From assembly GCA_050250375.1 (NCBI GenBank), contig JBFWOS010000002.1:773149-837148 (forward strand): a stretch of 64,000 nt of DNA, written 5' to 3'. Every line of letters starts with the position of its first letter. The first letter of the stretch is position 1. The notes under the pieces were generated by a model that saw nothing but the letters and a program-made list of their open reading frames with translations, did no database searches and was not told where the DNA came from. Made by a program: the position numbers and the translations under genes. Positions 3,104 to 45,695 of this stretch are shown here, piece after piece. This DNA comes from Candidatus Omnitrophota bacterium (lineage in GTDB: Bacteria > Omnitrophota > Gorgyraeia > Zapsychrales > Zapsychraceae).

Positions 3104-4117
3104 TTATTCGACAGGGATAATAATGGTCTGCCCCGGTTTGAGTTTATTGGGGTTGCTGATCTGGTTTTTGTTCAGTTCGTAGATGTATTGCCAGCGATGG
3201 CCGTTGCCCAATTCCCTCTCCGCGATTTTCCAGAGGGTATCGTTTTTGGTAATGATATATTCTTTTTGGGAAACTTTTAACGGCGATTCAATTTTTTCTT
3301 CCTTTTCAATGGAATATCTATTTTCCCCGATGATTTTTGCGGTCTTTTCTTCCGGGAACCGGCCTTCGGGGATCAGCATTTCTTCAACTTCCGCAATCAT
3401 AAACTGGGCGTTCCGGTCTTTCTGCATCCCGACCAGATCATTCACCGGGGCAACGGCGTCCAGTTTGCCGCGGCTGACGATCTTGATCCGTTCTTCTGAG
3501 ATCCCCTGGTCCAGCATAAATTGTTTAACCGTTTCTCCCCGCCTTTTGCCGAGCCTCAGGTTATATTCATTGGATCCGCGGGTGTCGCAATTGCCGGTAA
3601 TCAATATGGTCGATTCAGGATTACGTTGAAGAGTTTTAACTGCTTTCGTGAGAATAGTCGTATGGTCTTCACGCAAGTCGGCCTTGTTGTAATCAAAATA
3701 TATTTTGACGTTTTTGATGATATTTTTGATGAGCAGGGACGGTTTCATTTCCGGCGGTTTGGCTTCTTCCCTGGCCGGTATGGTCTTTGCGGGTTCTGGT
3801 TTTTTAGGCGCTTCAACGATCTCGTCTTCGTCCGGGGCCGCGTAATCATAAATAATTTTATAAACGTACACATATCCGCGGTTCCCCCACGGCCTGGCTT
3901 GTCCGGGTTGATCTGGCCACCACCAGTAACCGCCGCGTTTTTCATCTTTGACGGGAGCGGGCTGGGCATCCGTCGGCCACCAGGCAAAATTCTTCTGCAG
4001 CTGTTCCAGTTCTCCCTGTCTTTTTTCTGATTGGCGGTCTGCGCACCAGGCGGCCTGAGCGCTTAAATTCAAACAGAAAAAGTTGAATAATACGAGAATA
4101 CGGATCAAATATTTCAT
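3104..4117 (-). CDS. OmpA-family peptidoglycan-associated protein with a C-terminal LysM domain
   Basis: Signal peptide MKYLIRILVLFNFFCLNLSAQA. An OmpA_C-like segment reads NVKIYFDYNKADLRE...ITGNCDTRGSNEYNLRLGKRRGETVKQFMLDQGISEERI. A LysM-like segment reads YIITKNDTLWKIAERELGNGHRWQYIYELNKNQISNPNKLKPGQTIIIP. Confidence 0.7.
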   Translation of the reverse strand: MKYLIRILVLFNFFCLNLSAQAAWCADRQSEKRQGELEQLQKNFAWWPTDAQPAPVKDEKRGGYWWWPDQPGQARPWGNRGYVYVYKIIYDYAAPDEDEIVEAPKKPEPAKTIPAREEAKPPEMKPSLLIKNIIKNVKIYFDYNKADLREDHTTILTKAVKTLQRNPESTILITGNCDTRGSNEYNLRLGKRRGETVKQFMLDQGISEERIKIVSRGKLDAVAPVNDLVGMQKDRNAQFMIAEVEEMLIPEGRFPEEKTAKIIGENRYSIEKEEKIESPLKVSQKEYIITKNDTLWKIAERELGNGHRWQYIYELNKNQISNPNKLKPGQTIIIPVE

Positions 4118-4476
4118 ACGGCACATCCCAATACCTTTCGGACTTTTTCCAGCAGGACATCCACCCCCTGAACTTTGTCAAAATAATCATCGGCGCGCGG
4201 AATTGCCTGTCTTTGTTCATCAATAGGGTAAACACTGGCCACGATGATCTTAAAATCAGGATCATACTCATTGATGACATCGCGCATCACCACACCGTTA
4301 ATTTCCGGCATATTGAGGTCCAGCAAAACGAGATCGATGTGTTGGGTTGAAATCAGTTTAAACGTCGCCTGCGACGCGCTCTTCGCCTCAAACACCTCAA
4401 AGCCCTCTTTGGTCAGGACTTCTCTGTAGGTGCTGCGGATCTTTGTTTCGTCATCAATGATGAGAATCTTTTTCAT
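4114..4476 (-). CDS. Single-domain CheY-like response regulator receiver
   Basis: Start at MKKILIIDDETK (ATG at 4476) with GGAGG upstream. It has the DD pair, the D in LVLLDLNMP and the conserved K in DYFDK. Its stop overlaps the OmpA-LysM gene start by 4 bp (ATGA). Confidence 0.75.
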   Translation of the reverse strand: MKKILIIDDETKIRSTYREVLTKEGFEVFEAKSASQATFKLISTQHIDLVLLDLNMPEINGVVMRDVINEYDPDFKIIVASVYPIDEQRQAIPRADDYFDKVQGVDVLLEKVRKVLGCAV

Positions 4477-4575
4477 AGGTTCCTCCAGGTATGTTTCGAT
4501 TCTAGCAAGTTCACATGAGAAGAACATGAAATCAAAATTAAAATTTTCTCATTTTCAGAATTGCGCAGGAAGGGT

Positions 4576-6081
4576 TCAGGCGGCCAGGGGCAGGACAATC
4601 GTAAAGGTGGAGCCTTTGTTTAACTGACTTTCCACCTGAATGCTCCCGCGGTGGGCTTTGGCGACAGCCTGGGCGATATTTAAACCCAATCCGTTGCCTT
4701 TTTGAGCATCCTCGTCCCGGCTGGGGATCTGGAAAAACCGGGTAAAGATCAGGGAAAGATATTCTTCCGCCATCCCCGGCCCCTGATCGGCGACACTGAC
4801 TTTTAAGGAGTCTTCCGTCCTTACGGCATGGATGGTTATTTTCTTTCCGTCCGGGGTGAATTTGATGGCGTTATGGATGATATTTAAAAACAAACGACGT
4901 AAATGCAGGGAATCACCTTTGAGAAAAATATTTTCTTTGGGCAAAATATAGGTGATCTCGATATTCTTTTCTTCAGCGAGAATCTTTGTCTTATCAAAAA
5001 TTGTTTTAAGAAATTCTTTGCCGTCAAAACGTTCGAATTTCAGGAATTTGACGTGGTAGTCCAGTTTGGCTAAAAGCAGTAATTCCTCAATGATCTTGAT
5101 GATCTTTTCAATTTCTTCAAGGTTCTCTTTCAGGACATCTTTATAATCAGACGGACCCAGGTCTGTACGCAGGGCAACCTCGGTTTCCCCGCGTAAAATC
5201 GCCAGAGGAGTTTTCAACTCATGGGCCACTTGTGAACTGAACTGTTCAATATGTTTAAAAGAGTTTTCCAGCCGCGCGATCATGTCGTTAAAAGAATCCA
5301 CCAGGACTTTCATTTCTTCATCAATATTTTCCTGCCCGATTCTCCGGGACAAATCGCTGGAACTGATCTGGCGCGCTGTCAGGACGATGCTGTTGACCGG
5401 CCGTAAAATCCGGTCCGCCAGAAAACGCCCTAAAAATGCGGTCAGGATCAGAACAACCGGTATAATGACCATAAACATCCGCTGCCGGTAACTTAACAAT
5501 TCCAGAATGGGTGTTTCTGTGGAGGCAATGAGGACAAACACCGGATGCCCGGCCGGCAGTGAAATAACGGACTGGATTTTCCGGTAATAATTATGCCCGC
5601 TTTTGATCTCTCCAAAACTGTCTTCGCCGGAAGAAATATTGACGTCAGGCGTGAATTTCTTTATCAGATCATCAGGGATGTTCTGGGACGTGTAAATCAA
5701 CCGGCCCTCGGCATTAAAAAAAGCCACCATGTCCTGGCTTAAATCCAGCCGGTCAAAACGCATGAACCATTTCTCTTCTTCCGACAAAACCTCTCCCTCT
5801 GATTTTTTCTTTTTAACCGCCGCCATATCGGATTTGGGAGGGTACTGAAAGGAAAAAATCCGCTGAATGACCGCCGGGACATCCTCTCCGGATGAGGCGG
5901 ACAGCTCATCCGTGATAATGTTACCGAGCTCATCCACCTTGGCGGACAATTCTTCCTCCAGATCATTGATCAGATATTTTGAAAGACTGGTTTGAAGAAA
6001 GGCGCTGTACAGGATCAGGATAATGCCGAGAATGATCGTAAAGAGGTTTCCGATTTTGAATTTGATGGAATTAAATTTCAT
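4576..6081 (-). CDS. Sensor histidine kinase (two TM, periplasmic sensor, HisKA + HATPase_c), CusS-like
   Basis: H-box AHELKTPLAILRGETEVAL. N/G boxes NIIHNAIKFTPDG...DQGPGM...GNGLGLNIAQ. Its start overlaps the upstream response regulator stop by 4 bp. Confidence 0.85.
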   Translation of the reverse strand: MKFNSIKFKIGNLFTIILGIILILYSAFLQTSLSKYLINDLEEELSAKVDELGNIITDELSASSGEDVPAVIQRIFSFQYPPKSDMAAVKKKKSEGEVLSEEEKWFMRFDRLDLSQDMVAFFNAEGRLIYTSQNIPDDLIKKFTPDVNISSGEDSFGEIKSGHNYYRKIQSVISLPAGHPVFVLIASTETPILELLSYRQRMFMVIIPVVLILTAFLGRFLADRILRPVNSIVLTARQISSSDLSRRIGQENIDEEMKVLVDSFNDMIARLENSFKHIEQFSSQVAHELKTPLAILRGETEVALRTDLGPSDYKDVLKENLEEIEKIIKIIEELLLLAKLDYHVKFLKFERFDGKEFLKTIFDKTKILAEEKNIEITYILPKENIFLKGDSLHLRRLFLNIIHNAIKFTPDGKKITIHAVRTEDSLKVSVADQGPGMAEEYLSLIFTRFFQIPSRDEDAQKGNGLGLNIAQAVAKAHRGSIQVESQLNKGSTFTIVLPLAA

Positions 6082-23276: not shown

Positions 23277-26200
23277 TTAATCAACAATCATGACGGCACC
23301 CATAAGAGGTCCGAAGACCCAGTGCGGCGGGGCTTCCTCGGAGTCGGTGTTACCGGAATTAATCGAAGAAAAAGATTTGATATTATTGCTGGAGGTCTGC
23401 GAGTCCTGGACATCCAGGAAATAAGTTGATTGTATCCCGGAGACAACGTCAAACGTAAACCGGGTCCCGGCCATCGATGACCTTAAATACAACGGAATGA
23501 CATCGCTGAACCCTTGAAGATTCAGAGTGTTGTTTATTGTGACGGTTGAACTCTTTCCAAACGACAATGTTCTGGAAGGTCCCGATGAAAGTTGTTTGGA
23601 GAAATCATAAAATGTTTCTGAAGAATTCACGTTTTGGTCTGCACCATCCATCACTACATTTCCCGAATGCGGATCAAAGATCCCCCCATTATTATTCCAG
23701 TCCCCGGATACAGTGATCGGCTCGTTTGCGCCCGTATCCAGTTCCCCCGCGTTTAGAAATAATGTGCCGTTAATATCTAAAGCATCCTGGATTGTGTAAA
23801 TTGCCAGTGCCGTGGAGGGTTGTTCACCGTTCGCCAGGCGCTGGATTTCAGGAACACTGAGCACACGATTGTAAATCCGGAAATCATCAATCAAGCCGTC
23901 CCAGCCGGCTGCCGCATCTTTGCCCCCCTGTCCGATCCGTAGTTCAGTCGCCCCGGTCATTGTCCCGGACAAAGCCGCATCAGAATAAGTCGGCGTATCA
24001 AGATTTCCGTCTATATACAGCCGGATCGGGTTCCCGCTGCTCCAGGTCAAAGCCAGATGCTGCCAGTTGGTCGTCTGGACAAAACTGGCGCTTTCGTATT
24101 GGCGATTGACGCCGCTGACCTGTAAACCGCATTTAATGACATTTGTTCCGCCGCCGCTTGCGCCGGATAAATCATAACGAAGTGTAAAAATATTGTCTCC
24201 CCCGTTGGGTGGTTCACCGTTGAAGAACCCGTCGTCCACTCCGGTCGCGTCTGCTTTTACCCACAATGATACGGTAAATTCTGACAAACCATTGATATAA
24301 TTTTCTGCGTCGCTATCAATAATGTAATCCGTGGTCCCGTCAAATTGAAGGCTGGCCGGGTTATCAAAGTGGATCATCGCAGATGTCCCTGTATTGGGCG
24401 TTGTATTATTGACATAAATCATATCCCTTTGGAATCCGCTGCTGCCGTAAGCGGTCGTCCCGGTTGTTTCATCCATTTTCCAGTACGCGATCAGGCCGTC
24501 GTTGATGATCAGATGATGGAATGAACTCGTCCCCGATGTAATTGTCTGCGGATTCGTGGAAATAAATAAGACCGTCGAATCGGCGTTGGTAAATGTACCG
24601 CCGGTCATATCCCAGGAACCATCGACGATGATGGTTGAATTGCCGGCCGTCCCGGCGGTCGCATCCAGTGTGGAATCCAAATCAACGAGTCCGTTGATGG
24701 TCAAGTCATATCCATCGGTCTGAAATACACCGGCTAAAACCTCGAAATCACTGCCGAGGATCTCATCAGCCCCCATCATAAATGTTCCCCCCAAACCGTT
24801 AATGCGCAAGAACTGATACGTCCAGTCCTGAATGACGTGTGTGCCGGATGTCGCGGTATACTCGGCTCCGGAACCCGGATTAAAGACAGGTCCCGAATCC
24901 AGGGTAATGGTCTGGCTCCCGGCCAGCTGCAGAAGACCGTCCACCGTGATCGTTGACCCGGCATTGGTGGTAAAATCATACACGCCCCAGTCAAAGGTCG
25001 CCCCCGCGTCGATCGTGATCGTCCCATCGACAACCAGTCCGCTGGCCAGGATCACTTCGGCGGATGTATTGGAAATCTGTAAATCCCCGATCGATCCTCC
25101 GCCGGAGGTCAGCGTTTGGGTGACCGTGCCATCGGCGATCAGGAGAATGTCGTCTTCAATACTGCCGGCCCCGGATTTGTTGATGTCTCCGGAAACCGTG
25201 ATGGTGTGAATCTCGGTCCCGTCGGCCAGAAGATCGCTCCCTGAAGCATTACTCATGGACAGGTCCTGCTGGACGAGCAGGTCATCACTGACATGGATGT
25301 CATTGGCCGAAGTGCCGGCAAACCCTAAATTATAAAAGGTTGTCGGTCCGGTTATTGTAACCGGGTTGGCGGTGCTGTTAAACGTAACCGTCCCGTTGCG
25401 CGCGATAAATGTGTCTGCGTTGATCCAATTCCCGAATATAAAAGATGAATAATTATTCGTCGCATGGGAATCGAGCGTGCCATCCAGTAACGAAAGCGTC
25501 CCTCCTACGGTAAAGGTCCCGCCCAGTTCAATTGTATAATCCGCCCCGCCGTCCGCGTCATCAATCACAACATTATAAAAGGTGGACGATCCTAACGCGA
25601 CGGTCACTGTACCGGCTGTCCCGTCAAACGTAACGGTCGAAGTGCCGGGATCAAATGTCCCCAAACTGCTGGCGATCCAGTCACCGCTTACTGTCATGAG
25701 AACCTGGTTAGTTCCCGCATCCAACTCACCATCCGAAATATTAATGTTTCCGTTTATATCCTGGTCATATTGAAGAATAACATTGTCACTGCCCGGAACA
25801 CCGGTATTAAAAACAGCAAAGTTTTCAAACGGCTGGTTCAGATTATCGACCATCTGGTCTGAAGTTCCGTTAAAGGTTACGGTACTGCCGGTTTCATTAA
25901 ATGTACCGCTGCTTGAATTCCAATCCCCGGAAACAGTCATCGTTCCGGTCAATGTTAAGGTTCCGCCCAGATTAAAATGGTGGGTGACAATTCCTTCCGG
26001 AGAAACGGTAATGACGGAATTATTAGGAAGAATATTAAGCTCTTCATCGGTATAAGAACCGTCGGCATCGGCGATTAAGACGGTCCCGGACGTCACAAGA
26101 TACATAACGTCTTCGTCATCCGTGTTGTCATAGTGACCGATTTCAGTCAGAGTGAACGTCTGGTTGTCATCACTGCCGATGGTCAGGACATGCCGGTCAA

Positions 26201-29200
26201 GCACGACACCGCTGATATTCCCGGAGCCGTCATATTTGGTGACGCCTGAAGATTCATCGGCGGCAATGATATCTCCGTCTCCGTCTTCGGCCCACATGGT
26301 CAGACGATCACCGATTAAAATCGGAGCGTTATTAATCGTCCAGGCTCCGCTGGAAACGACGCCGGTCATGCCGACACATAAATTACCGTTGACCGCCAGA
26401 GCCACGATGGTGTTGTCGACCAGGTCAGACGTGCCCGATATATCAACCGTGGCGGCAGTATAACTGATGACCAGACGGCCGTTATTCCCGGCTGTCCCGG
26501 CGCCTGATGTAGCGCCGCCGGTTCCCCCTTGCCCCGCATTGCCGGCGTAATCCGTGTCGGTGTTATTCCCGGCGGCAGTACCGCTGCCGTCGGAGGTCGA
26601 GGTGGCCGTTCCGGAGACAAAAGATGAACCCCCTCCACCACCGCCGCCGCCGGCATTGCCCGCCTGCGACCCGCTGCCTCCGCCTCCACCGTAATAGCCG
26701 GACCCTCCTCCTCCTCCCGCACCGTAACCGCTGGCGTTGGCATCACCGGTCCCGCCGTCTCCGCCGTTGGTGGTCCCGCCGTTTCCGGCGGAACCGTCAG
26801 CGCCTTGTCCGGAACGTCCGTCCGCTCCTGCGCCGCCTGTATCCGCCGCGCCGGCTGAACCGCTGTTATTGCCGCCTGTTCCTCCGCTGCCTCCGGAGGA
26901 TTGGTCTGCTCCGCCGCCCCCTCCGGCATTGCCTGACGCGCTGCCGTTGACACCTGTTGTTCCGCCACCCGGACCGCCGGCTCCACCCGGGGTGGCTGAC
27001 GAATTGTCACCACCACCACCACCTCCTCCTCCAGCGGAGATAAGTAAAGGTGTGGATGCGCGAAAGACCGCTGTCCGCCCCCCTCCACCCGCGCCGTCCC
27101 CCGAAGCGTTTCCTGAACCGCCGGAACTGAATGCTCCTGCCCCGCCGGAGCCGCCGACATGGATATCTAATGTTTCCATGGGAGTAACCGCCAGGGTTGC
27201 CGTCGCAAAGGCCGCTCCGCTTCCGTCTCCACCGGTACCTACCGTCCCTCCACCCCCGCCGCCTCCGCCTCCGCCCCAGGCTTTAACGGTGATCTCCGTG
27301 ACACCTTTGGGCACCACAAACGTATCCGATCCGGCGACCGTAAAAACTTGTGTTCCAAAACCATCCGGTAGTGGAAAAATCCAGAATGGAGAAGCCGTTA
27401 AATCGTCATTTCCTCCGTCATTCACGGAGTTTCTTGCCGTGATGTCATTGTTCAAGGCGTTGGAGTTGGCCACTTTGACAAATTCAACAATCTGGTCCCC
27501 GCCCGTTACACTCAAGCTGAACTGTGTTGACCCGTCGATGCTGTCAAGTTCGACTTCATTATTGATTTCACCGACCAGATTCAGGCTTCCCGTTACGGTA
27601 AAGGTGGTCGATTGTTGAAACTCCATTTTGGCTGAAAGGGTGGTACTGACCAGGTCCGCCGTTGTGAACGATTCGGTAAATTGCACCCCGAACGCGGATG
27701 AATTCGTTACTTCGATAATATTATATGTTTCTGAATTGCTGGCGACCGTTTGTAATCCTGTCCCGTCAAATTCAACCGTTGAGCTGGTTACCGTAAACGT
27801 ATCAAGGTTGGCCAGGTCAAGATCACCCCCCAGAAAAACAGTGTCGTTACTGATGTTGAACGTCGTGGCCCCGCCGTTATTGACCGTAAGACTTCCGTTG
27901 ATATCCAGATCGTCCGCTGTGCTGAGAACTCCGCCGGTAACGGACGATCCGATTTGGATATTGTTAAACGCTCCGCCTGAACTGGTCAGCGATGATGTTC
28001 CGTCAAACACAACGGTCGAATTCGTATTGATAAAATTCCCCCCGGTCATATCCCAATCCCCGGACACATTAAGGGTGGAATTCCCATCGGCGCCGCTCTG
28101 CGCGTCCAATGTTCCGTTCAAGGTCAACCCGCCGTTGATGTCAACTTCATATCCGCCTGTGATTAGATTGTCACCTGTATCAATCGTCAAGGTGTTGCTT
28201 AAGAAGTCCGAGGACAAGTTTACGGCGTTATTGGGGGAACGGCTGATCAGAACATTCCCCAAATTTGTCCCGCCGTCCACGTTTAAATCCAGAATCCCGT
28301 CCAGCAGTACCGTTCCGGCGCCGGCTGTGAATGTACCGCCGGTCTTGATGATATTGCCGGCGATATTAATATCGGTGTTATTGGCGCCCAGATTGATCGT
28401 TCCGTCGTTCATGTTTAACGGCCCGTCAATGTCGATCAGGATTGAGGAGTTGGGGGTAATCGTTCCGGTGTATCCGGATTCGATCAGGATACCTCCGACA
28501 TTAAACGCGGCGTTGACAGTCGCGTTATTTGTACAGCTGTTGGAAAAAACGACATTATGGGTTGTATTCGGGACAGAGGCCCCACCGCCGACACCGCAGG
28601 AATTTTCAGAAGCCGACCAGTTGGCCGCAGAATTTGTATTCCCTCCGGCCGAACCGACCCAATACCGGTTGACGGCAAAGATCCAATGCGGTGAGGCTTC
28701 GGCGTTATCGTTCCCGCCGTTATTGTTCGAAGACAAGGCCGTAATATCGTTTGAAGAAGCTTGTGAATCCATGATATTTAAAAAACTGACCGTTTGGCTG
28801 GATCCGGTCACATCAAACGTGAACCTTACTCCAGAAGAATTGCTTTGAAGGACCAGACGGTCATCGTCATCCAGCCCCGTCAGATTTAAAGTATTGGTGA
28901 TGGTCTGGGTTGAGGAGGCGGCAATGGTCAGAGTGGTGTTTGAACTGTTGTCGGTGGATTCAATCTTGGTCAGATTGCGGAAGGTAGTTGATCCCGTAAT
29001 ACTCTGGTTATCGCCATCGAGGATGACCGTTGATACGCCGGATCCCGCAGCCAGGGAACCCGAAGCGCCCATCAGCCAGTTTCCCGCGAGATTTATGTTG
29101 ACGTTATTGGTTCCCGAATCAAGATTACCGTCTGTAATCGTCAGCGTTCCGTTGATGTCCAGGGCATCAGACAAAATAATGTCATCATTTCCGGATGACC

Positions 29201-30791
29201 CGGTATTATTCAACAGAATATTATAAAACGATTCTGTATCGCTGGTGATCGTCTGATCGCTTGTCCCGTTAAATGTGATCGTCCCGGTGCCGGCGTTTAG
29301 GGAACCTCCTGTAGAATCCCAGTTCCCTGTTAAATCCATTGTCCCGGTAATCGTGAGTGTTCCATCCAGATCGGCATGATGCGTGCGCACACCTTCCGGT
29401 GAACTCACCGTCACCGTATTACCGGATAAAATTCTTATTTGTTCATCCGAATAACTGTTTCCCGCATCGACAATCAGTACTGTCCCGCTGAAAAGAACAC
29501 TGTGCAGGACATCTTCATCATTGCTGTTACCATAAAGTCCGATTTCCGTGACGCTCAGATTCTGGTTGTCCGTGCTGCCGATGGACAAGACATGGCGGTT
29601 TAAAACCATACCGGTGATATTTCCGGAGCCGTCATACTGTGTAACGGCCGTTGCTTCATCGGCCGTGGCTATATCCCCGTCGCCGTCTTCCGCCCAAACG
29701 GTAATAACCTCATTGGATGTGATCGGAACATCTGCGATCGTCCAGGCCCCGGCTGAGACCGTTCCGGTTAACGCCGTAAAGCGGACCCCGTTAACCGCGA
29801 TCTTAACCAAAGTTCCATCCGCTAAATCCGATGTCCCGGAAATATCCGCCGATGTATAGGAGATAACTAAACGCCCCGGATTTCCGGAGGTTCCGGAAGA
29901 CGATGACGCTCCGCCGGTTCCGCCCTGCCCGGCACTGCCGGCATAATCCGCGTCGCCGTTATTACCTGCCGATGTTCCTGAACCGGCTGTTGTTGATGTT
30001 GAAGACCCGGTTAATAAGGAAGAACCGCCGCCACCGCCGCCACCGCCGGCATTACTCGCCAACGAACCGCTTCCGCCGCCACCGCCAAACCTTCCTGCTC
30101 CACCTCCGCCTCCTCCGCCATAACCATTCGCGTTTGCGTCACCGTTACCACCGGAGGCGCCTCCAATCGTACCGCCGTTTCCCTTCGAACCATCCGCTCC
30201 CTGTCCGCTTCGACCGTCGGCCCCGGCGCCACCGCTCAAGGCTGCCCCGGCCGTGCCTGTATTATTTCCACCTGTGCCTGCGGCCCCGCCGGCCACCGTT
30301 GTTCCGCCGCCACCGCCACCCGAACTGCCAGACGCGCTGCCGGCTGTCCCTGATGAACCGCCTCCCGGTCCGCCATTTCCGCCAGGTGTTACTGAAGAGT
30401 TATCACCGCCTCCACCGCCTCCGCCTCCGGGCGCAATGAGTAACTGAGTCCCGCCGCGCGCTACACCCGAACGGCCCCCCCCACCGCCACCGTCTCCGGA
30501 ATTTGCACCTGAGCCGCCGGTACTAAAATCCCCTTGACCACCGCCGCCTCCCACTGTGATCGTGAGCGACTCCGCCGGTGTGACGACAAGCGTTGCTCCT
30601 GAAAAACCTGCCCCGCCGCCGCTCCCTCCTGTACTGGATGCGTTAGTCCCGCCGCCACCGCCGCCACCGCCTCCTCCCCAAGCTTTAACGCTGACCGAAG
30701 TTACACCTTGGGGTACACTCCAGGAAGAGGACCCTGCTGAATTAAATACAACCTGGGCCGCCCCGGCCGGAGCCGTCCACAGGCCCATCAA
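23277..30791 (-). CDS. Giant (2,504 aa) glycine-rich, beta-helical-repeat surface/adhesin-like protein with a LamG (concanavalin A-like lectin) domain
   Basis: One continuous ORF with a TTG/ATG start at 30791/30788. It has two Gly-rich domains. The first is QVVFNSAGSSSWSVPQGVTSVSVKAWGGGGGGGGGG..., and its counterpart is TQVFTVAGSDTFVVPKGVTEITVKAWGGGGGGGGGG.... Long runs of parallel-beta-helix-type repeats (…GDWxxxGGTF…STVxFxGTSDQ…) follow. A LamG domain (aa ~2101-2323, nt ~23823-24491) ends in GLIDDFRIYNRVLSVPEIQRLANGE. Three module ends share SP[HF]W[IV]F. No classical signal peptide is evident at the N-terminus. Confidence 0.85.
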   Translation of the reverse strand: MMGLWTAPAGAAQVVFNSAGSSSWSVPQGVTSVSVKAWGGGGGGGGGGTNASSTGGSGGGAGFSGATLVVTPAESLTITVGGGGGQGDFSTGGSGANSGDGGGGGGRSGVARGGTQLLIAPGGGGGGGGDNSSVTPGGNGGPGGGSSGTAGSASGSSGGGGGGTTVAGGAAGTGGNNTGTAGAALSGGAGADGRSGQGADGSKGNGGTIGGASGGNGDANANGYGGGGGGGAGRFGGGGGSGSLASNAGGGGGGGGSSLLTGSSTSTTAGSGTSAGNNGDADYAGSAGQGGTGGASSSSGTSGNPGRLVISYTSADISGTSDLADGTLVKIAVNGVRFTALTGTVSAGAWTIADVPITSNEVITVWAEDGDGDIATADEATAVTQYDGSGNITGMVLNRHVLSIGSTDNQNLSVTEIGLYGNSNDEDVLHSVLFSGTVLIVDAGNSYSDEQIRILSGNTVTVSSPEGVRTHHADLDGTLTITGTMDLTGNWDSTGGSLNAGTGTITFNGTSDQTITSDTESFYNILLNNTGSSGNDDIILSDALDINGTLTITDGNLDSGTNNVNINLAGNWLMGASGSLAAGSGVSTVILDGDNQSITGSTTFRNLTKIESTDNSSNTTLTIAASSTQTITNTLNLTGLDDDDRLVLQSNSSGVRFTFDVTGSSQTVSFLNIMDSQASSNDITALSSNNNGGNDNAEASPHWIFAVNRYWVGSAGGNTNSAANWSASENSCGVGGGASVPNTTHNVVFSNSCTNNATVNAAFNVGGILIESGYTGTITPNSSILIDIDGPLNMNDGTINLGANNTDINIAGNIIKTGGTFTAGAGTVLLDGILDLNVDGGTNLGNVLISRSPNNAVNLSSDFLSNTLTIDTGDNLITGGYEVDINGGLTLNGTLDAQSGADGNSTLNVSGDWDMTGGNFINTNSTVVFDGTSSLTSSGGAFNNIQIGSSVTGGVLSTADDLDINGSLTVNNGGATTFNISNDTVFLGGDLDLANLDTFTVTSSTVEFDGTGLQTVASNSETYNIIEVTNSSAFGVQFTESFTTADLVSTTLSAKMEFQQSTTFTVTGSLNLVGEINNEVELDSIDGSTQFSLSVTGGDQIVEFVKVANSNALNNDITARNSVNDGGNDDLTASPFWIFPLPDGFGTQVFTVAGSDTFVVPKGVTEITVKAWGGGGGGGGGGTVGTGGDGSGAAFATATLAVTPMETLDIHVGGSGGAGAFSSGGSGNASGDGAGGGGRTAVFRASTPLLISAGGGGGGGGDNSSATPGGAGGPGGGTTGVNGSASGNAGGGGGADQSSGGSGGTGGNNSGSAGAADTGGAGADGRSGQGADGSAGNGGTTNGGDGGTGDANASGYGAGGGGGSGYYGGGGGSGSQAGNAGGGGGGGGSSFVSGTATSTSDGSGTAAGNNTDTDYAGNAGQGGTGGATSGAGTAGNNGRLVISYTAATVDISGTSDLVDNTIVALAVNGNLCVGMTGVVSSGAWTINNAPILIGDRLTMWAEDGDGDIIAADESSGVTKYDGSGNISGVVLDRHVLTIGSDDNQTFTLTEIGHYDNTDDEDVMYLVTSGTVLIADADGSYTDEELNILPNNSVITVSPEGIVTHHFNLGGTLTLTGTMTVSGDWNSSSGTFNETGSTVTFNGTSDQMVDNLNQPFENFAVFNTGVPGSDNVILQYDQDINGNINISDGELDAGTNQVLMTVSGDWIASSLGTFDPGTSTVTFDGTAGTVTVALGSSTFYNVVIDDADGGADYTIELGGTFTVGGTLSLLDGTLDSHATNNYSSFIFGNWINADTFIARNGTVTFNSTANPVTITGPTTFYNLGFAGTSANDIHVSDDLLVQQDLSMSNASGSDLLADGTEIHTITVSGDINKSGAGSIEDDILLIADGTVTQTLTSGGGSIGDLQISNTSAEVILASGLVVDGTITIDAGATFDWGVYDFTTNAGSTITVDGLLQLAGSQTITLDSGPVFNPGSGAEYTATSGTHVIQDWTYQFLRINGLGGTFMMGADEILGSDFEVLAGVFQTDGYDLTINGLVDLDSTLDATAGTAGNSTIIVDGSWDMTGGTFTNADSTVLFISTNPQTITSGTSSFHHLIINDGLIAYWKMDETTGTTAYGSSGFQRDMIYVNNTTPNTGTSAMIHFDNPASLQFDGTTDYIIDSDAENYINGLSEFTVSLWVKADATGVDDGFFNGEPPNGGDNIFTLRYDLSGASGGGTNVIKCGLQVSGVNRQYESASFVQTTNWQHLALTWSSGNPIRLYIDGNLDTPTYSDAALSGTMTGATELRIGQGGKDAAAGWDGLIDDFRIYNRVLSVPEIQRLANGEQPSTALAIYTIQDALDINGTLFLNAGELDTGANEPITVSGDWNNNGGIFDPHSGNVVMDGADQNVNSSETFYDFSKQLSSGPSRTLSFGKSSTVTINNTLNLQGFSDVIPLYLRSSMAGTRFTFDVVSGIQSTYFLDVQDSQTSSNNIKSFSSINSGNTDSEEAPPHWVFGPLMGAVMIVD
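23280..27374 (-). repeat. Copy 2 (aa 1140-2504) of the intragenic tandem duplication; it carries the LamG insertion
   Basis: Homologous to copy 1 over its length, and ~226 aa longer. The extra length is accounted for by the LamG domain at nt ~23823-24491. Boundaries are approximate. Confidence 0.55.
27375..30791 (-). repeat. Copy 1 (aa 1-1139) of the ~3.4 kb intragenic tandem duplication in the giant gene
   Basis: V35 of VKAWGGGG maps to nt 30687-30689 and its homolog V1169 to nt 27285-27287, an offset of 1,134 aa (3,402 nt). The protein segments align (e.g. AEDGDGDIATADEATAVTQYDGSGNITGMVLNRHVL vs AEDGDGDIIAADESSGVTKYDGSGNISGVVLDRHVL). Nucleotide identity is ~70%. Boundaries are approximate. 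Confidence 0.6.
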
Positions 30792-31127
30792 AATACTTAA
30801 CCAAATACATTTTTGAGTTTTTTTAAATTTCTCAGATAGAATAATAACAAACCTTTCAAAATTTAAGAATGATTGAAAACTACAGAATAATATTTAATAT
30901 TAAGATTAATCTTATTTTATTATTTCTATTTTAAAACAGATCTATTTATATTTCTCCCCTAAATTCCATTTTTTTCCAAAAAAAACTTTTAAGTAAAATA
31001 TCTGATATCGGTAAGAATTGAAAAATCGGTGCTGAAGAAATAACGGGGAAGGAGAAATTCATCCACTTGATTTCTAACACTCAATCAAATGGATGAAGAA
31101 TGATTTTGGAGAATTGATCCGGAAATT
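30792..31127. promoter_or_regulatory. 336-bp strongly AT-rich intergenic tract upstream of the giant gene (putative complex promoter/regulatory region)
   Basis: Read directly. The tract is dominated by A/T runs (tttttgagtttttttaaatttctc..., attaagattaatcttattttattatttctattttaaaa). Flanking coding DNA is ~50% GC, and the adjacent Gly-rich gene segment is >65% GC. No ORF of 60 aa or more falls here. Confidence 0.4.
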
Positions 31128-40131: not shown

Positions 40132-41880
40132 TTATAAAGACGGTTTGACGCTGAACCGGTCGTAATTCTGGCTTTTAACCTGCCTGGTTCCGCCATCGCT
40201 TTCCCGGACAATGACCAGGCTGGCATACCCTTCCCCTAACGCGTCGGTCAGGCTGGCGCCCTGGTCCGGTTCAAGAATACATAAAGCCGTTGACCAAAAG
40301 TCGGAAAATTCGGTATTGGGGCTGATCACCGTGGCGCTCAAAATCTGGTCTGACGGATACCCGGTGATCGGATTGATAATATGCGACCATTGTTTTCCCT
40401 GAATCGTATAAAACCGCTCATAGTTTCCGGATGTTGACACGGAAATATCGGCTGCTTCAACAACATCGATTAAACGGGTTGTGTCCTGCGGATCGCGGAC
40501 TCCGACATGCCAGGGCTGCCCCTTGCAGTTTATTCCTCCCGCATAAAGTTCACCCGAGGCGTCAACCAGGAAATTCCGGATGCCATATTCCCGCAAAATC
40601 CGGGCCGCTTCATCAGCCGCGAATCCGTCCCCGATACTATCGATATTCAGTTTTAGCCCTTCCTTAAGCAAATGAATCCGGTTCCCGGAAAGCAGCTGGA
40701 TCTGCTGTATCCCCAACTGTTCTTTGACGGCTTTTAGTTCCTCCGGAGTTGGAATCGTATTTTTCTTTTCGTTCTCTTTCCAAAGTTTGATCAACGGGTA
40801 AATCGTAATATCAAAAACGCCTTTGGATATCTCATGATATTCCATTGAATTTTTAATCAGCTGATAAGTATCTTCGCCCACCTTCACATTTTCGGTATAA
40901 CCATTCTTGTTAATTCTGTTGAGGTCGCTGTTCGGATCGTAGACACTCAGCCGCCAGTGAATATCCGCAAACCTGTCCCAGATCTCATCCAAGGCCTGTT
41001 CAACCGTTTCTTTCCGGTCTTCGTTCTCACAGACGTCAATCTTGACGTAAGCCCCGAAAAAATCTCCGACCCGGGTGAATTTGTTATAATCCGGTCCGTT
41101 CTCTTTGAGACAGCCGTTGGTTGAGAGGATAAGGGCAAACAGGAGAATACGGTAAATCCCGAAAGGGATAAAATTGAAGCGTTTGATAAACTGCAGCAGA
41201 AATTTAATACTGAATAAAGCAACGACAAACGAGACTAAAAATCCCAGGGCAAAATACCCAAACTGGTCCGGGTTTATATCCCCCGAACTTTTGAGCAAGT
41301 CATAGCAGGTCGCGGCCAAAATGGTCGGGACGGCTAGCAAAAATGAAAATTCAACCACGGTTTTACGCTTGATCCCCATGGTCAATCCACCGATGATGCT
41401 GGCGGCCGACCGGGAAACGCCCGGGATAATGGCAATGGTCTGGAAAAGACCGATAATAACCGCTGTCTTGTAAGGAATTTGTTCAATGTCTTCAATACGG
41501 GATTTTTTGTCTTTATGGAACAGATCAAAGATAATGATAACGAGACCCCCCCAGAAAAGGGACCAGGCGATCAGCATATGGCTTTCAAATAAATAATTTT
41601 TAACCAGTTTATACAGCAGAAAGCCGATGACTGCGGTCGGCACAAACGCCGCCATGATCCGGGTCCACACCTCTTTTTTCCGCAGTAGTGTCCGTCCGTA
41701 CAAAACAACCACCGCCAGAATCGCGCCGAGCTGGATGAAAATTTCAAAACTCTTCAAGAATCCGGTCTGGGTGTACCCAAGGTACTTTGCGGTGAGGATC
41801 AGATGTCCGGTGGACGAAACCGGTAAGAACTCGGTAATGCCTTCAACAATTCCTAAAATTATAATATCAATAATATTCAT
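40132..41880 (-). CDS. Fusion protein: N-terminal undecaprenyl-diphosphate phosphatase (UppP/BacA) with C-terminal ApbE/Ftp-family FAD:protein FMN transferase
   Basis: aa 1-265 match UppP (MNIIDIIILGIVEGITEFLPVSSTGHLIL, ...GVSRSAASIIGGL...). aa ~270-582 match ApbE (...SGNYERFYTIQGKQWSHIINPITGYP plus other ApbE family motifs). It is a single uninterrupted 582-aa ORF. Confidence 0.75.
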   Translation of the reverse strand: MNIIDIIILGIVEGITEFLPVSSTGHLILTAKYLGYTQTGFLKSFEIFIQLGAILAVVVLYGRTLLRKKEVWTRIMAAFVPTAVIGFLLYKLVKNYLFESHMLIAWSLFWGGLVIIIFDLFHKDKKSRIEDIEQIPYKTAVIIGLFQTIAIIPGVSRSAASIIGGLTMGIKRKTVVEFSFLLAVPTILAATCYDLLKSSGDINPDQFGYFALGFLVSFVVALFSIKFLLQFIKRFNFIPFGIYRILLFALILSTNGCLKENGPDYNKFTRVGDFFGAYVKIDVCENEDRKETVEQALDEIWDRFADIHWRLSVYDPNSDLNRINKNGYTENVKVGEDTYQLIKNSMEYHEISKGVFDITIYPLIKLWKENEKKNTIPTPEELKAVKEQLGIQQIQLLSGNRIHLLKEGLKLNIDSIGDGFAADEAARILREYGIRNFLVDASGELYAGGINCKGQPWHVGVRDPQDTTRLIDVVEAADISVSTSGNYERFYTIQGKQWSHIINPITGYPSDQILSATVISPNTEFSDFWSTALCILEPDQGASLTDALGEGYASLVIVRESDGGTRQVKSQNYDRFSVKPSL

Positions 41881-43731: not shown

Positions 43732-44709
43732 TTACTGGTTATGCCGGATCAGATAGATGGTGTATCCAAGATACATTGAAAAAAACATCATCCCTTCCCA
43801 TCGGGAAATGCTGTATTTTGTCCGGAAAACCGGATAACAGAGTACGGCGATCAAGACCATAAACGGGATGTCCACCGCCATGGATGCCGGGTTGATTTGT
43901 AAGCCTCCCCGGGGGATAAGCGCCGTCACCCCCAGGATCGCCAGAATATTATAAATATTGCTTCCAACAACATTACCGATCGCGATATCCCGTTCTCCTT
44001 TAAGCGTGGCGACCACTGAAGTCGCGACTTCCGGCAATGATGTTCCGGCGGCCACAATCGTGAGTGCGATCACCAATTCACTGACACCGAAATACCGTGC
44101 GATACCGATCGATGAATTTACCAGCCATTTTGACCCCACAATTAACAGGAGCAATCCGGCACCGATAAAAAGCAGGTCCTGCAGAACATGGTTCGCCTTG
44201 TTTTTTTCTGAAAGACCTGCAAGAGAAATTCTTTCCGATTCATTTTTGATTTCTTGGTATTCTCTTTTGCTGTACCAAAAACAAAACCATGTATATAGGA
44301 TGACTCCCAGAAGAAAAATCACGCCTTCAAATCGGGATATTTTATAATCCAGGGCCGCCAGATAAAACAGACCTGAAACGGTCACCATGATCGGCGTATC
44401 CAGTTTGATCAATTTTTGATCCACTTTGAGCGGAGCGATGAGTGCGCATAAACCTAAAATAAAAAGCACGTTGAAAATATTACTGCCGACCACGTTACCG
44501 ATTGCGATATCGAATTTTTCAAGTAACGCCGAATTTATATTTACAACCAGTTCAGGCGCGCTTGTTCCGTACGCGACGATTGTTAACCCGATGGCCAGCT
44601 GGGATACCCCGATGGCGGCCGCCAGCCGTGAAGCCCCGCGGACCAGCCAATCAGCGCCGATGGTCAACACGGTCAAACCCAAACCCAAAAAGAGTAATTG
44701 GTTTAACAT
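43732..44709 (-). CDS. Ca2+/cation antiporter (CaCA family, YrbG-like), paralog 1
   Basis: Alpha-repeat motifs GTSAPELVVNINSAL and GTSLPEVATSVVA. The start is taken at MLNQLLFLGL (ATG at 44709), by analogy with its paralog's N-terminus. Confidence 0.75.
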   Translation of the reverse strand: MLNQLLFLGLGLTVLTIGADWLVRGASRLAAAIGVSQLAIGLTIVAYGTSAPELVVNINSALLEKFDIAIGNVVGSNIFNVLFILGLCALIAPLKVDQKLIKLDTPIMVTVSGLFYLAALDYKISRFEGVIFLLGVILYTWFCFWYSKREYQEIKNESERISLAGLSEKNKANHVLQDLLFIGAGLLLLIVGSKWLVNSSIGIARYFGVSELVIALTIVAAGTSLPEVATSVVATLKGERDIAIGNVVGSNIYNILAILGVTALIPRGGLQINPASMAVDIPFMVLIAVLCYPVFRTKYSISRWEGMMFFSMYLGYTIYLIRHNQ

Positions 44710-44714
44710 AGATA

Positions 44715-45695
44715 TTAATGAACCGATTGCCGTATTATGTAACAGGTATAGCCCAGATACAAAGAAAAAAACAAAAGCCCTTCCCATCGGGAAATAGCGG
44801 CTTTCCACCGGAAGACCGGATAACACAAAATGATAACAAAGAGCATAAACGGGATGTCCAGTTTCATGGAAGCCGGATTGATGAGAAGACCCTTGGACGG
44901 GATAAGGGCGGAAATCCCCAGGATGACCAGGATGTTTGAGATATTGCTGCCGATAATATTTCCGATCGCGATCTCCCTCTCTCCTTTGATCGTAGCGACA
45001 ACCGAAGTCGCCACCTCAGGCAAAGAAGTCCCGGCGGCCACGATGGTCAGGGCAATGACCAGTTCACTGACACCAAAATACCGGGCGATTTCAACCGAAG
45101 AACTGACAAGCCACTGGGCGCCGATCACCAGCAAAGCCAAACCGGCCAGAATAAAAAATATGTCGCGCAGAATGTTATCGGGTTTTCGTAATTCCCTGAT
45201 ATCTCCCCCGAATTCTTTATCAAATTCATTGACAATCTCCGGGGCCTCCGTCTGGCAGGTCCTGAAACAAATCCAGTTATAAAAAAGCATACCACAGAAA
45301 AATACAGCCCCTTCAATACGGCTGATTTTTAAATCCAGCGAGAACAGATAAAAAAGCACAGAAATGAAGATCATGAAAGGAACATCAAAACGGACGAGCT
45401 TTTGTTCGACTTTGATAGGAGCGATTATGGCGCACAGGCCCAAAATAAAAGCGATGTTGAAAATATTACTCCCGATAACATTCCCGGTTGCAATATCAAA
45501 TTTTCCAAGCAGGACGGAATTGATACTGACCATCAATTCCGGAGCACTGGTTCCGAAAGCAACGACAGTCAATCCGATGACAAGGGGCGATATGCCGAAG
45601 GCCCGGCCGAGTTTCGAGGCGCCGCGCACCAGCCAATCAGCGCCCCAAGCCAGACCAAATAATCCTAAAAACAAAAATACAAAATGATTAAGCAT
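44715..45695 (-). CDS. Ca2+/cation antiporter (CaCA family, YrbG-like), paralog 2
   Basis: Same architecture and motifs as paralog 1. The two gene ends are highly similar at the nucleotide level (compare 43732-43880 with 44740-44890), indicating a tandem duplication. Confidence 0.75.
   Translation of the reverse strand: MLNHFVFLFLGLFGLAWGADWLVRGASKLGRAFGISPLVIGLTVVAFGTSAPELMVSINSVLLGKFDIATGNVIGSNIFNIAFILGLCAIIAPIKVEQKLVRFDVPFMIFISVLFYLFSLDLKISRIEGAVFFCGMLFYNWICFRTCQTEAPEIVNEFDKEFGGDIRELRKPDNILRDIFFILAGLALLVIGAQWLVSSSVEIARYFGVSELVIALTIVAAGTSLPEVATSVVATIKGEREIAIGNIIGSNISNILVILGISALIPSKGLLINPASMKLDIPFMLFVIILCYPVFRWKAAISRWEGLLFFSLYLGYTCYIIRQSVH

Follow-up and report, generated by a model that had tools for sequence, protein, structure and literature searches.

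A single open reading frame (ORF) in a 64,000-nucleotide stretch of a Candidatus Omnitrophota genome (contig JBFWOS010000002.1, positions 773,149 to 837,148; hereafter the window) encodes a 2,504-amino-acid (aa) protein that we interpret, with moderate confidence, as a Sec-exported, elongated right-handed β-helix protein, most likely an adhesin or recognition protein that works as a multivalent binding fibre. We favour this interpretation because the domain set consists only of extracellular-type folds, relatives of the protein carry leaders, and every known context of its glycine-rich domain (GRD) is one of ligand or receptor binding. In the arrangement we propose, an N-terminal leader, with a start codon that is either a non-canonical ATT or mis-sequenced, would direct Sec export. 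A stalk of solenoid modules, each finished by a conserved cap with [ST]PxW[IVL]F at its end, would then display three candidate ligand-binding modules, namely two GRDs and a lectin-type LamG domain inserted in the last helix. The ligand of the displayed protein could be a polysaccharide or the surface of a host or prey cell. An old internal duplication gave rise to the two-head layout.

The ORF (23277..30791, minus strand) is uninterrupted from TTG through its stop codon, with the length that an earlier reading of the letters alone (the sequence-only reading) had given. NCBI places the start at the ATG one codon after the TTG, giving 2,503 aa, and an identical 2,503-aa protein is deposited from assembly GCA_050181705.1 (contig JBFXCX010000001.1, 1.006 Mb) as 'MAG: LamG-like jellyroll fold domain-containing protein [Candidatus Omnitrophota bacterium]'; three contigs in total carry a gene call for it. 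The gene is real and not an assembly artefact. A chimeric collapse of repeats, which the sequence-only reading had named as a possible refutation, was ruled out because the internal copies have diverged to 61–66% identity, and the same protein stands on three contigs. Catalogues already contain every domain type found in it, and its sequence is public under a generic name. Though uncharacterised, the protein is no exotic case within its large family of bacterial surface proteins. In the literature searched, no description of the architecture, the cap motif or the C-terminal tail was found, and queries for PF21722, Gly_rich_2 and Omnitrophota with glycine-rich gave no account of the family.

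Domain architecture and predicted folds

The protein is large, repetitive, Cys-poor (4 Cys) and rich in Thr, Asn and Gly, and the GC content rises to 57% at 26–28 kb of the window, matching a Gly-rich coding stretch. Its features, all on the minus strand, are as follows.

23277..30791, minus: ORF as called, 2,504 aa from TTG
30759..30845, minus: putative true 5′ end with leader, as read from the sequence
30852..30857, minus: GAAAGG, a Shine–Dalgarno-like motif 6 nt upstream of ATT
29832..30755, minus: GRD 1, aa ~13–320, 39% Gly; fold presumed from the copy 2 model
28677..29831, minus: small β-sandwich, β-helix section 1 and cap 1 ending SPHWIF, aa 321–705
27375..28676, minus: β-helix module 2, beginning NRYWVGSAGGNT..NWS and ending in cap 2, SPFWIF, aa 706–1139
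26409..27359, minus: GRD 2, aa 1145–1461, 37.5% Gly
24342..26408, minus: β-sandwich and long β-helix section of unit 2, aa 1462–2150
23841..24341, minus: LamG (concanavalin-A-like) domain, aa 2151–2317, Pfam PF13385
23313..23798, minus: terminal helix coils and cap 3 ending PPHWVF, aa 2332–2493, paralogous to parts of unit 1
23280..23312, minus: C-terminal tail GPLMGAVMIVD-COOH, conserved in relatives

In Pfam and NCBIfam searches with the whole protein and six sub-segments, the LamG domain alone was significant (Laminin_G_3, PF13385; 78.2 bits against a cutoff of 27.6, E 9.5e-22, full profile 1–151). It occurs once, in the second half only, just as the sequence-only reading had proposed. Candidate matches to G8, CBM_35, TcaA and spore_ger were sub-threshold or noise, and PDB sequence searches, whether queried with the protein or with profiles A1 and A3, returned nothing usable. 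The fold of the helical sections was assigned on AlphaFold2 models, which superpose on solved right-handed parallel β-helices of the pectin-lyase-like type; the helix consists of many regular repeat units of ~80 aa with caps. The three module-end motifs noted before us are indeed present, as SPHWIF at aa 700, SPFWIF at aa 1134 and PPHWVF at aa 2488, and the terminal module (aa 2332–2493) is paralogous both to aa 540–705 (45% identity) and to aa 954–1129. The sole low-confidence parts of the helix model (predicted local confidence, pLDDT, below 50–60) are the '...N.GGND....SP[HF]WIF' stretches at aa 676–702 and 1113–1139 (window about 28686–28766 and 27375–27455, minus strand), which serve as linkers between modules.

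Each GRD has the conserved lead-in that the sequence-only reading described, VKAWGGGG, at aa 35 and aa 1169. Its assignment to Pfam Gly_rich (PF12810, the ALK/LTK GRD) did not hold: there was no match, even with the isolated domains at E≤10, and that family is present only in a few distant matches among the 120 listed. The related profile PF21722 (Gly_rich_2) gave no match on the whole protein and sub-threshold ones on the isolated domains, with 18.5 bits (E 0.0022, profile positions 2–219 of 226) for copy 2 and 7.1 bits for copy 1 against a gathering cutoff of 24.3 bits. PF21722 does match 15 of 27 aligned homologous domains at E≤0.01, the best of them at 1.1e-9, and a precomputed match exists for P0004, a close relative. 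Homology is therefore transitive, with scores short of formal membership.

The GRD fold was compared on an AlphaFold2 model of copy 2, from which the fold of copy 1 is taken by extension. The structural matches, with their scores, were as follows.

Human ALK GRD, 7lrz (193 residues, 3.0 Å, 31% identity): 16.4
Cyanophage Pam3 fibre gp24: 15.3
C. elegans ALK: 14.8
Bxb1 gp33: 14.5
Bxb1 tail spike gp29 (sub-domain): 8.7
Next match: 4.3

The model thus superposes on solved GRDs and is well separated from other folds, which points to an ALK/LTK-type GRD, and the best 25 Foldseek matches are these same ALK and phage proteins, with TM-scores of only 0.35–0.5. As modelled, the domain is a TNF-like plus polyglycine-II domain. 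In Pam3, TNF-like and polyglycine-II sub-domains form the receptor-recognising fibre tip (PMC9608196), and a 2026 paper groups ALK, S16 gp38, Pam3 and Bxb1 gp33 as PPII-bundle domains (PMC13243192). The likeness to the ligand-binding domain of the ALK/LTK receptor kinases is one of fold; the protein described here is bacterial and carries the GRD twice inside a β-helix protein, with no kinase or EGF context. Gly-rich domains are likewise shared with the tips of phage fibres (cyanophage Pam3 gp24, mycobacteriophage Bxb1 gp33 and, as related according to the literature, S16 gp38), where the GRD sits at the distal C-terminus, whereas the present GRDs are internal, no adjacent chaperone gene was found and the gene is not a phage gene.

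A hidden Markov model built from the two GRD copies found 108 near-full-length (~310 aa) domain copies in 120 homologues, often two per protein. Kelch-family Pfam domains occur in 65 of the 120 matches listed, and a taxon is named for four of those 65, all Saccharibacteria. Relatives combining Kelch and GRD include P0008–P0014, P0018 and P0019, and at least seven proteins of this kind hold two GRD copies. Nine of the thirteen proteins P0008–P0020 share a conserved C-terminus that is peculiar to them, ...[SA]K[RH]LMHGRTF[TV]GG[LI]Q[QM]PD[DA]TP[YF]... Other GRD matches come from Bacteroidota.

The internal duplication

The sequence-only reading had described a tandem duplication of ~3.4 kb with ~70% nucleotide identity, forming two supermodules of ~1,140 aa. 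Self-BLASTN gives a single off-diagonal match (gene nt 76–1283 against 3478–4685) at an offset of 3,402 nt, so the spacing stands. The extent of the unit does not. Protein alignment of aa 4–1023 with aa 1138–2165 (without composition correction) yields 45% identity overall. Counted per 100 alignment columns, the identity of the two units runs 60, 72, 73, 64, 55 and 41% up to aa ~600/1732 and falls to 15–37% with many gaps beyond, so that the units are not equivalent. The secure duplicated block is ~600 aa, or ~1.8 kb of clearly co-linear sequence per unit, and comprises the Gly-rich domain, the small β-sandwich and the first helix section; within aa 1462–2150, clear paralogy to unit 1 is limited to the first ~270 aa. 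After the shared block the two units part ways, unit 1 continuing with cap 1, a second helix module that starts NRYWVGSAGGNT and cap 2. In unit 2 the helix is longer and leads to the LamG domain and then to cap 3, which matches cap 1 at 45% identity. Nucleotide identity, too, is lower than first stated, at 65.6% in the 1,227-nt high-scoring segment pair and 61% over 592 aligned codons.

Across those codons the nonsynonymous divergence (dN) is 0.34 and the synonymous divergence (dS) ~2.1, the latter saturated, with dN/dS between the copies of about 0.16. These values mark an old event, with purifying selection acting on each copy, and bear out the earlier view of an old, maintained duplication. 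Neighbour-joining trees place the post-GRD segments by position, Q1 with P0002a and Q2 with P0002b, where P0002 is a 3,193-aa Omnitrophota relative; the duplication thus predates the split between the lineages of this gene and of P0002, and is common to at least one other Omnitrophota lineage. The GRDs (aa 13–320, aa 1145–1461 and P0002 copies a and b) group within each protein instead. Concerted evolution, a constraint common to both heads or a bias in composition could lie behind this within-protein similarity; no recent conversion tracts between the GRDs are visible at their 64% nucleotide identity.

Putative leader, export and relatives

The sequence-only reading reported no signal peptide and took the export route to be unclear. 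That is right for the ORF as called, and a probable artefact of ORF calling where the gene is concerned: the upstream in-frame sequence encodes a leader-like extension, and close relatives have leaders. Ahead of the called start, 33 further codons lie in the open frame (window 30792–30893, minus strand; 2,538 codons from stop to stop), which reads directly as I-I-L-S-E-K-F-K-K-T-Q-K-C-I-W-L-S-I-L-M-G-L-W-T-A-P-A-G-A/A-Q—by eye a leader of the Sec type, in which a Lys-rich n-region and a hydrophobic core precede an A-x-A site (A-G-A). The putative signal peptide is seen by eye only if translation begins at one of two ATT codons, at 30845 or 30842. GAAAGG stands 6–9 nt before them and resembles the Shine–Dalgarno-like motifs of other window genes, such as cgaaaggtattgggATG, and no such motif precedes the annotated ATG/TTG. 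We infer that the start was mis-called, because translation initiates at ATT or because the sequence contains a wrong base. Initiation at the out-of-frame ATG at 30809 followed by a frameshift was judged less likely, since the resulting leader would be much poorer. Exact-pattern scans of genome and metagenome contig collections yielded no independent copy of the 5′ end. P0002, P0003 and P0006 start with typical leaders, and examples in close relatives are MRLFKHNFRLTVWGLVLATCLAAVWVGRAYA, MNKWFKQSGLLFLTILGLLVGG and MHNLYRQFGRILLPALFLVAAWCVPTAAQ.

Comparison with known secretion classes gave no match. The protein ends 11 residues past its last cap and has no C-terminal β-barrel of the type V autotransporter kind; Pfam and NCBIfam searches with the C-terminal 185 aa (aa 2320–2504) found nothing, sorting domains (type IX secretion system (T9SS), PEP-CTERM, LPXTG and others) included; and the tail GPLMGAVMIVD has no transmembrane segment and no known sorting motif. 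As for two-partner secretion (TPS), the N-terminus is directly a GRD, without a PF05860 (Haemagg_act) match, and the neighbouring genes examined contain no Pfam match to POTRA or to an outer-membrane β-barrel of the TpsB type. Type V passengers (Ag43, TibA, Vag8, VacA p55) and TPS exoproteins (HMW1, EtpA) are β-helical adhesins too. Unlike them, the present protein has no β-barrel translocator, no TPS domain and no Pfam match to either group, and has in place of those parts the 11-residue conserved tail and the [ST]PxW[IVL]F caps.

The sequence-only reading did not recognise the architecture as described, but it is not unique to this protein. P0002 has the same layout (GRD / sandwich-helix-cap / helix-cap / GRD), and the module grammar and caps are common to P0002–P0006 (1,898–3,994 aa; Omnitrophota where named) and this protein, within a family of highly variable architecture (0–2 GRDs and 0–3 LamG domains per protein). 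An exhaustive search of representative proteins with a terminal-module profile matched 5,236 at E≤1e-3 and 507 at E≤1e-30, with lengths of 1–7.7 kaa and often many copies per protein; the solenoid-plus-cap module is therefore widespread. A word-indexed homologue search with the C-terminal 175 aa, by comparison, returned one fragment only.

The C-terminus of P0002–P0006 is almost invariant, GP[LK][RK]GA[IV][IM][IM]VD. More generally, an 11-residue tail GP[LK][RK]GA[VI][MIL]x[VI][DE]-COOH with a variable position −3 follows the last cap in ~22 of the 307 proteins retrieved, among which the sole named bearer is Omnitrophota; besides P0002–P0006 it ends P0121, P0165, P0172, P0178, P0206, P0223, P0225, P0248, P0263, P0269, P0285, P0300 and P0306. 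Most tail-bearing proteins consist of helix and one to three LamG domains. In P0306 the sequence before the tail is not the usual one, a hint that the signal is portable. In P0007 (4,193 aa) a tail-like 'WFAGPDPPPVVIIIDDP' is internal, with ~75 more residues after it, so the position is not always terminal. One relative's locus (L005, 3342–10133) holds tandem tail-bearing LamG/β-helix paralogues, P0223 (1,136 aa) and P0225 (1,123 aa), with a 359-aa LamG gene upstream of the pair. Directly upstream of the family gene, three relatives among the seven loci have a ~230–245-aa gene with multiple helix-turn-helix (HTH) motifs, HTH_17-like, preceded in two of the three by a GAF-GAF-ANTAR gene; neither gene occurs in this window. 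The HTH-rich genes lie at:

L003, 7316–8008
L004, 2652–3353
L005, 2473–3207

In the window, the neighbours are ordinary chromosomal genes: GNAT-deacetylase, DUF1579, STAS-ion channel, zinc alcohol dehydrogenase, CHASE4 histidine kinase, carbonic anhydrase, PEPCK, TrkH, transporters and H+-PPase, with no secretion or phage genes among those examined. Two further loci deserve mention. At 40132–41880 (minus strand), one 582-aa ORF joins BacA (undecaprenyl-diphosphatase, aa 7–247) and ApbE (flavin transferase, aa 275–548) in an apparent gene fusion. At 43732–45695 (minus strand), two adjoining Na+/Ca2+ exchanger (Na_Ca_ex) ORFs overlap by ~110 nt as called, and the start of the downstream one (GTG) is probably over-extended.

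Alternative explanations and biological meaning

Several points weigh against an exported binding fibre. The protein as called begins (L)MGLWTAPAGAAQ, without a leader, and no in-frame ATG, GTG or TTG occurs in the 33 codons upstream of 30791. No secretion, anchoring or chaperone gene is conserved beside the family gene in the seven loci. The GRDs lie within the chain rather than at a fibre tip, and the folds were assigned on models predicted from shallow alignments of 27 and 15 sequences. Moreover, β-helix folds house enzymes too.

The last point leads to the alternative that survives best, rather unlikely as we consider it: a secreted polysaccharide-degrading enzyme with a catalytic β-helix (lyase, hydrolase or epimerase), to which the LamG domain and the GRDs would contribute carbohydrate binding. 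Against such an enzyme, neither Pfam nor NCBIfam gave a pectate-lyase, Beta_helix or glycoside-hydrolase match, even for sub-segments at E 10; identity to the enzyme matches is 6–14%; and the regular ~80-aa repeats with their caps fit stalks, not compact catalytic helices.

We find it quite unlikely that the protein is a structural envelope component (surface layer, sheath or spacer) lacking a specific ligand. Its size, repetitiveness and Thr/Asn/Gly-rich, Cys-poor composition (4 Cys) would suit that role, the family-wide tail could serve as an anchoring element, and the family genes are usually single and scattered in the chromosome; the variable architectures fit diversifying binding proteins better than a lattice former, and the GRD fold is at home only where ligands or receptors are bound. 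In much the same low range we place a decaying gene or a non-exported product, the leader having lost its start codon and the TTG/ATG at 30791/30788 yielding a cytoplasmic protein or none. The missing upstream start codon favours this, as do the NCBI pipeline's likewise choosing ATG and the absence here of a ~1,200-aa N-terminal part present in the syntenic-looking P0002. Yet the 7.5-kb frame is intact, with dN/dS between its copies of about 0.16, and so is the in-frame leader segment, whose Shine–Dalgarno-like motif is correctly spaced from ATT when the annotated start has none. A prophage-derived tail fibre or receptor-binding protein is very improbable: phage fibres are among the best structural matches of the GRD and there are weak PHROG matches (e.g., phrog_863 'tail fiber assembly', E 2e-3), but the neighbours examined serve housekeeping or transport or lack annotation, neither they nor the loci of six relatives include any phage gene family, and the relatives carry Sec leaders.

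An exported, multivalent binding fibre thus remains the interpretation we prefer. The sequence-only reading was largely right in substance. It overstated the extent and identity of the duplication, chose the wrong Pfam family and read a probable ORF-calling artefact as an absent leader. Our finding amounts to describing the domain architecture of an uncharacterised protein whose domain types are catalogued, with the mechanism at the level of a proposal.

Large proteins have been reported from this phylum before. The Omnitrophota 'giant' proteins are mostly predicted to be membrane-associated or secreted, and are proposed to act on other cells (West-Roberts et al. 2023, bioRxiv 10.1101/2023.11.21.568195; 2026 preprint 10.64898/2026.06.07.730766). 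They exceed 10,000 aa and feature antiparallel β-helices and SecA-like, dockerin and peptidase domains, and glycine-rich or LamG domains go unmentioned in both papers (10.1101/2023.11.21.568195; 10.64898/2026.06.07.730766). The present protein shares their phylum; it has 2,504 aa and no adjoining secretion or pilus genes.

A broader idea, to which we give only a small chance, is that ultra-small host-dependent bacteria (Omnitrophota, and Saccharibacteria with Kelch plus double-GRD proteins) may recognise host or prey through phage-type TNF-like/polyglycine-II heads, those of Omnitrophota being borne on β-helix stalks and exported or anchored by an undescribed sorting signal, GP[LK][RK]GA[VI][MIL]x[VI][DE]-COOH. 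Omnitrophota is a phylum without a cultured representative and with a suspected parasitic or predatory lifestyle. If the favoured interpretation is true, the family would supply this phylum with concrete candidate cell-recognition proteins and would extend the glycine-rich fold of ALK and phage fibres to cellular surface proteins of bacteria—with the caps and the C-terminal tail as testable handles on the export or anchoring machinery.

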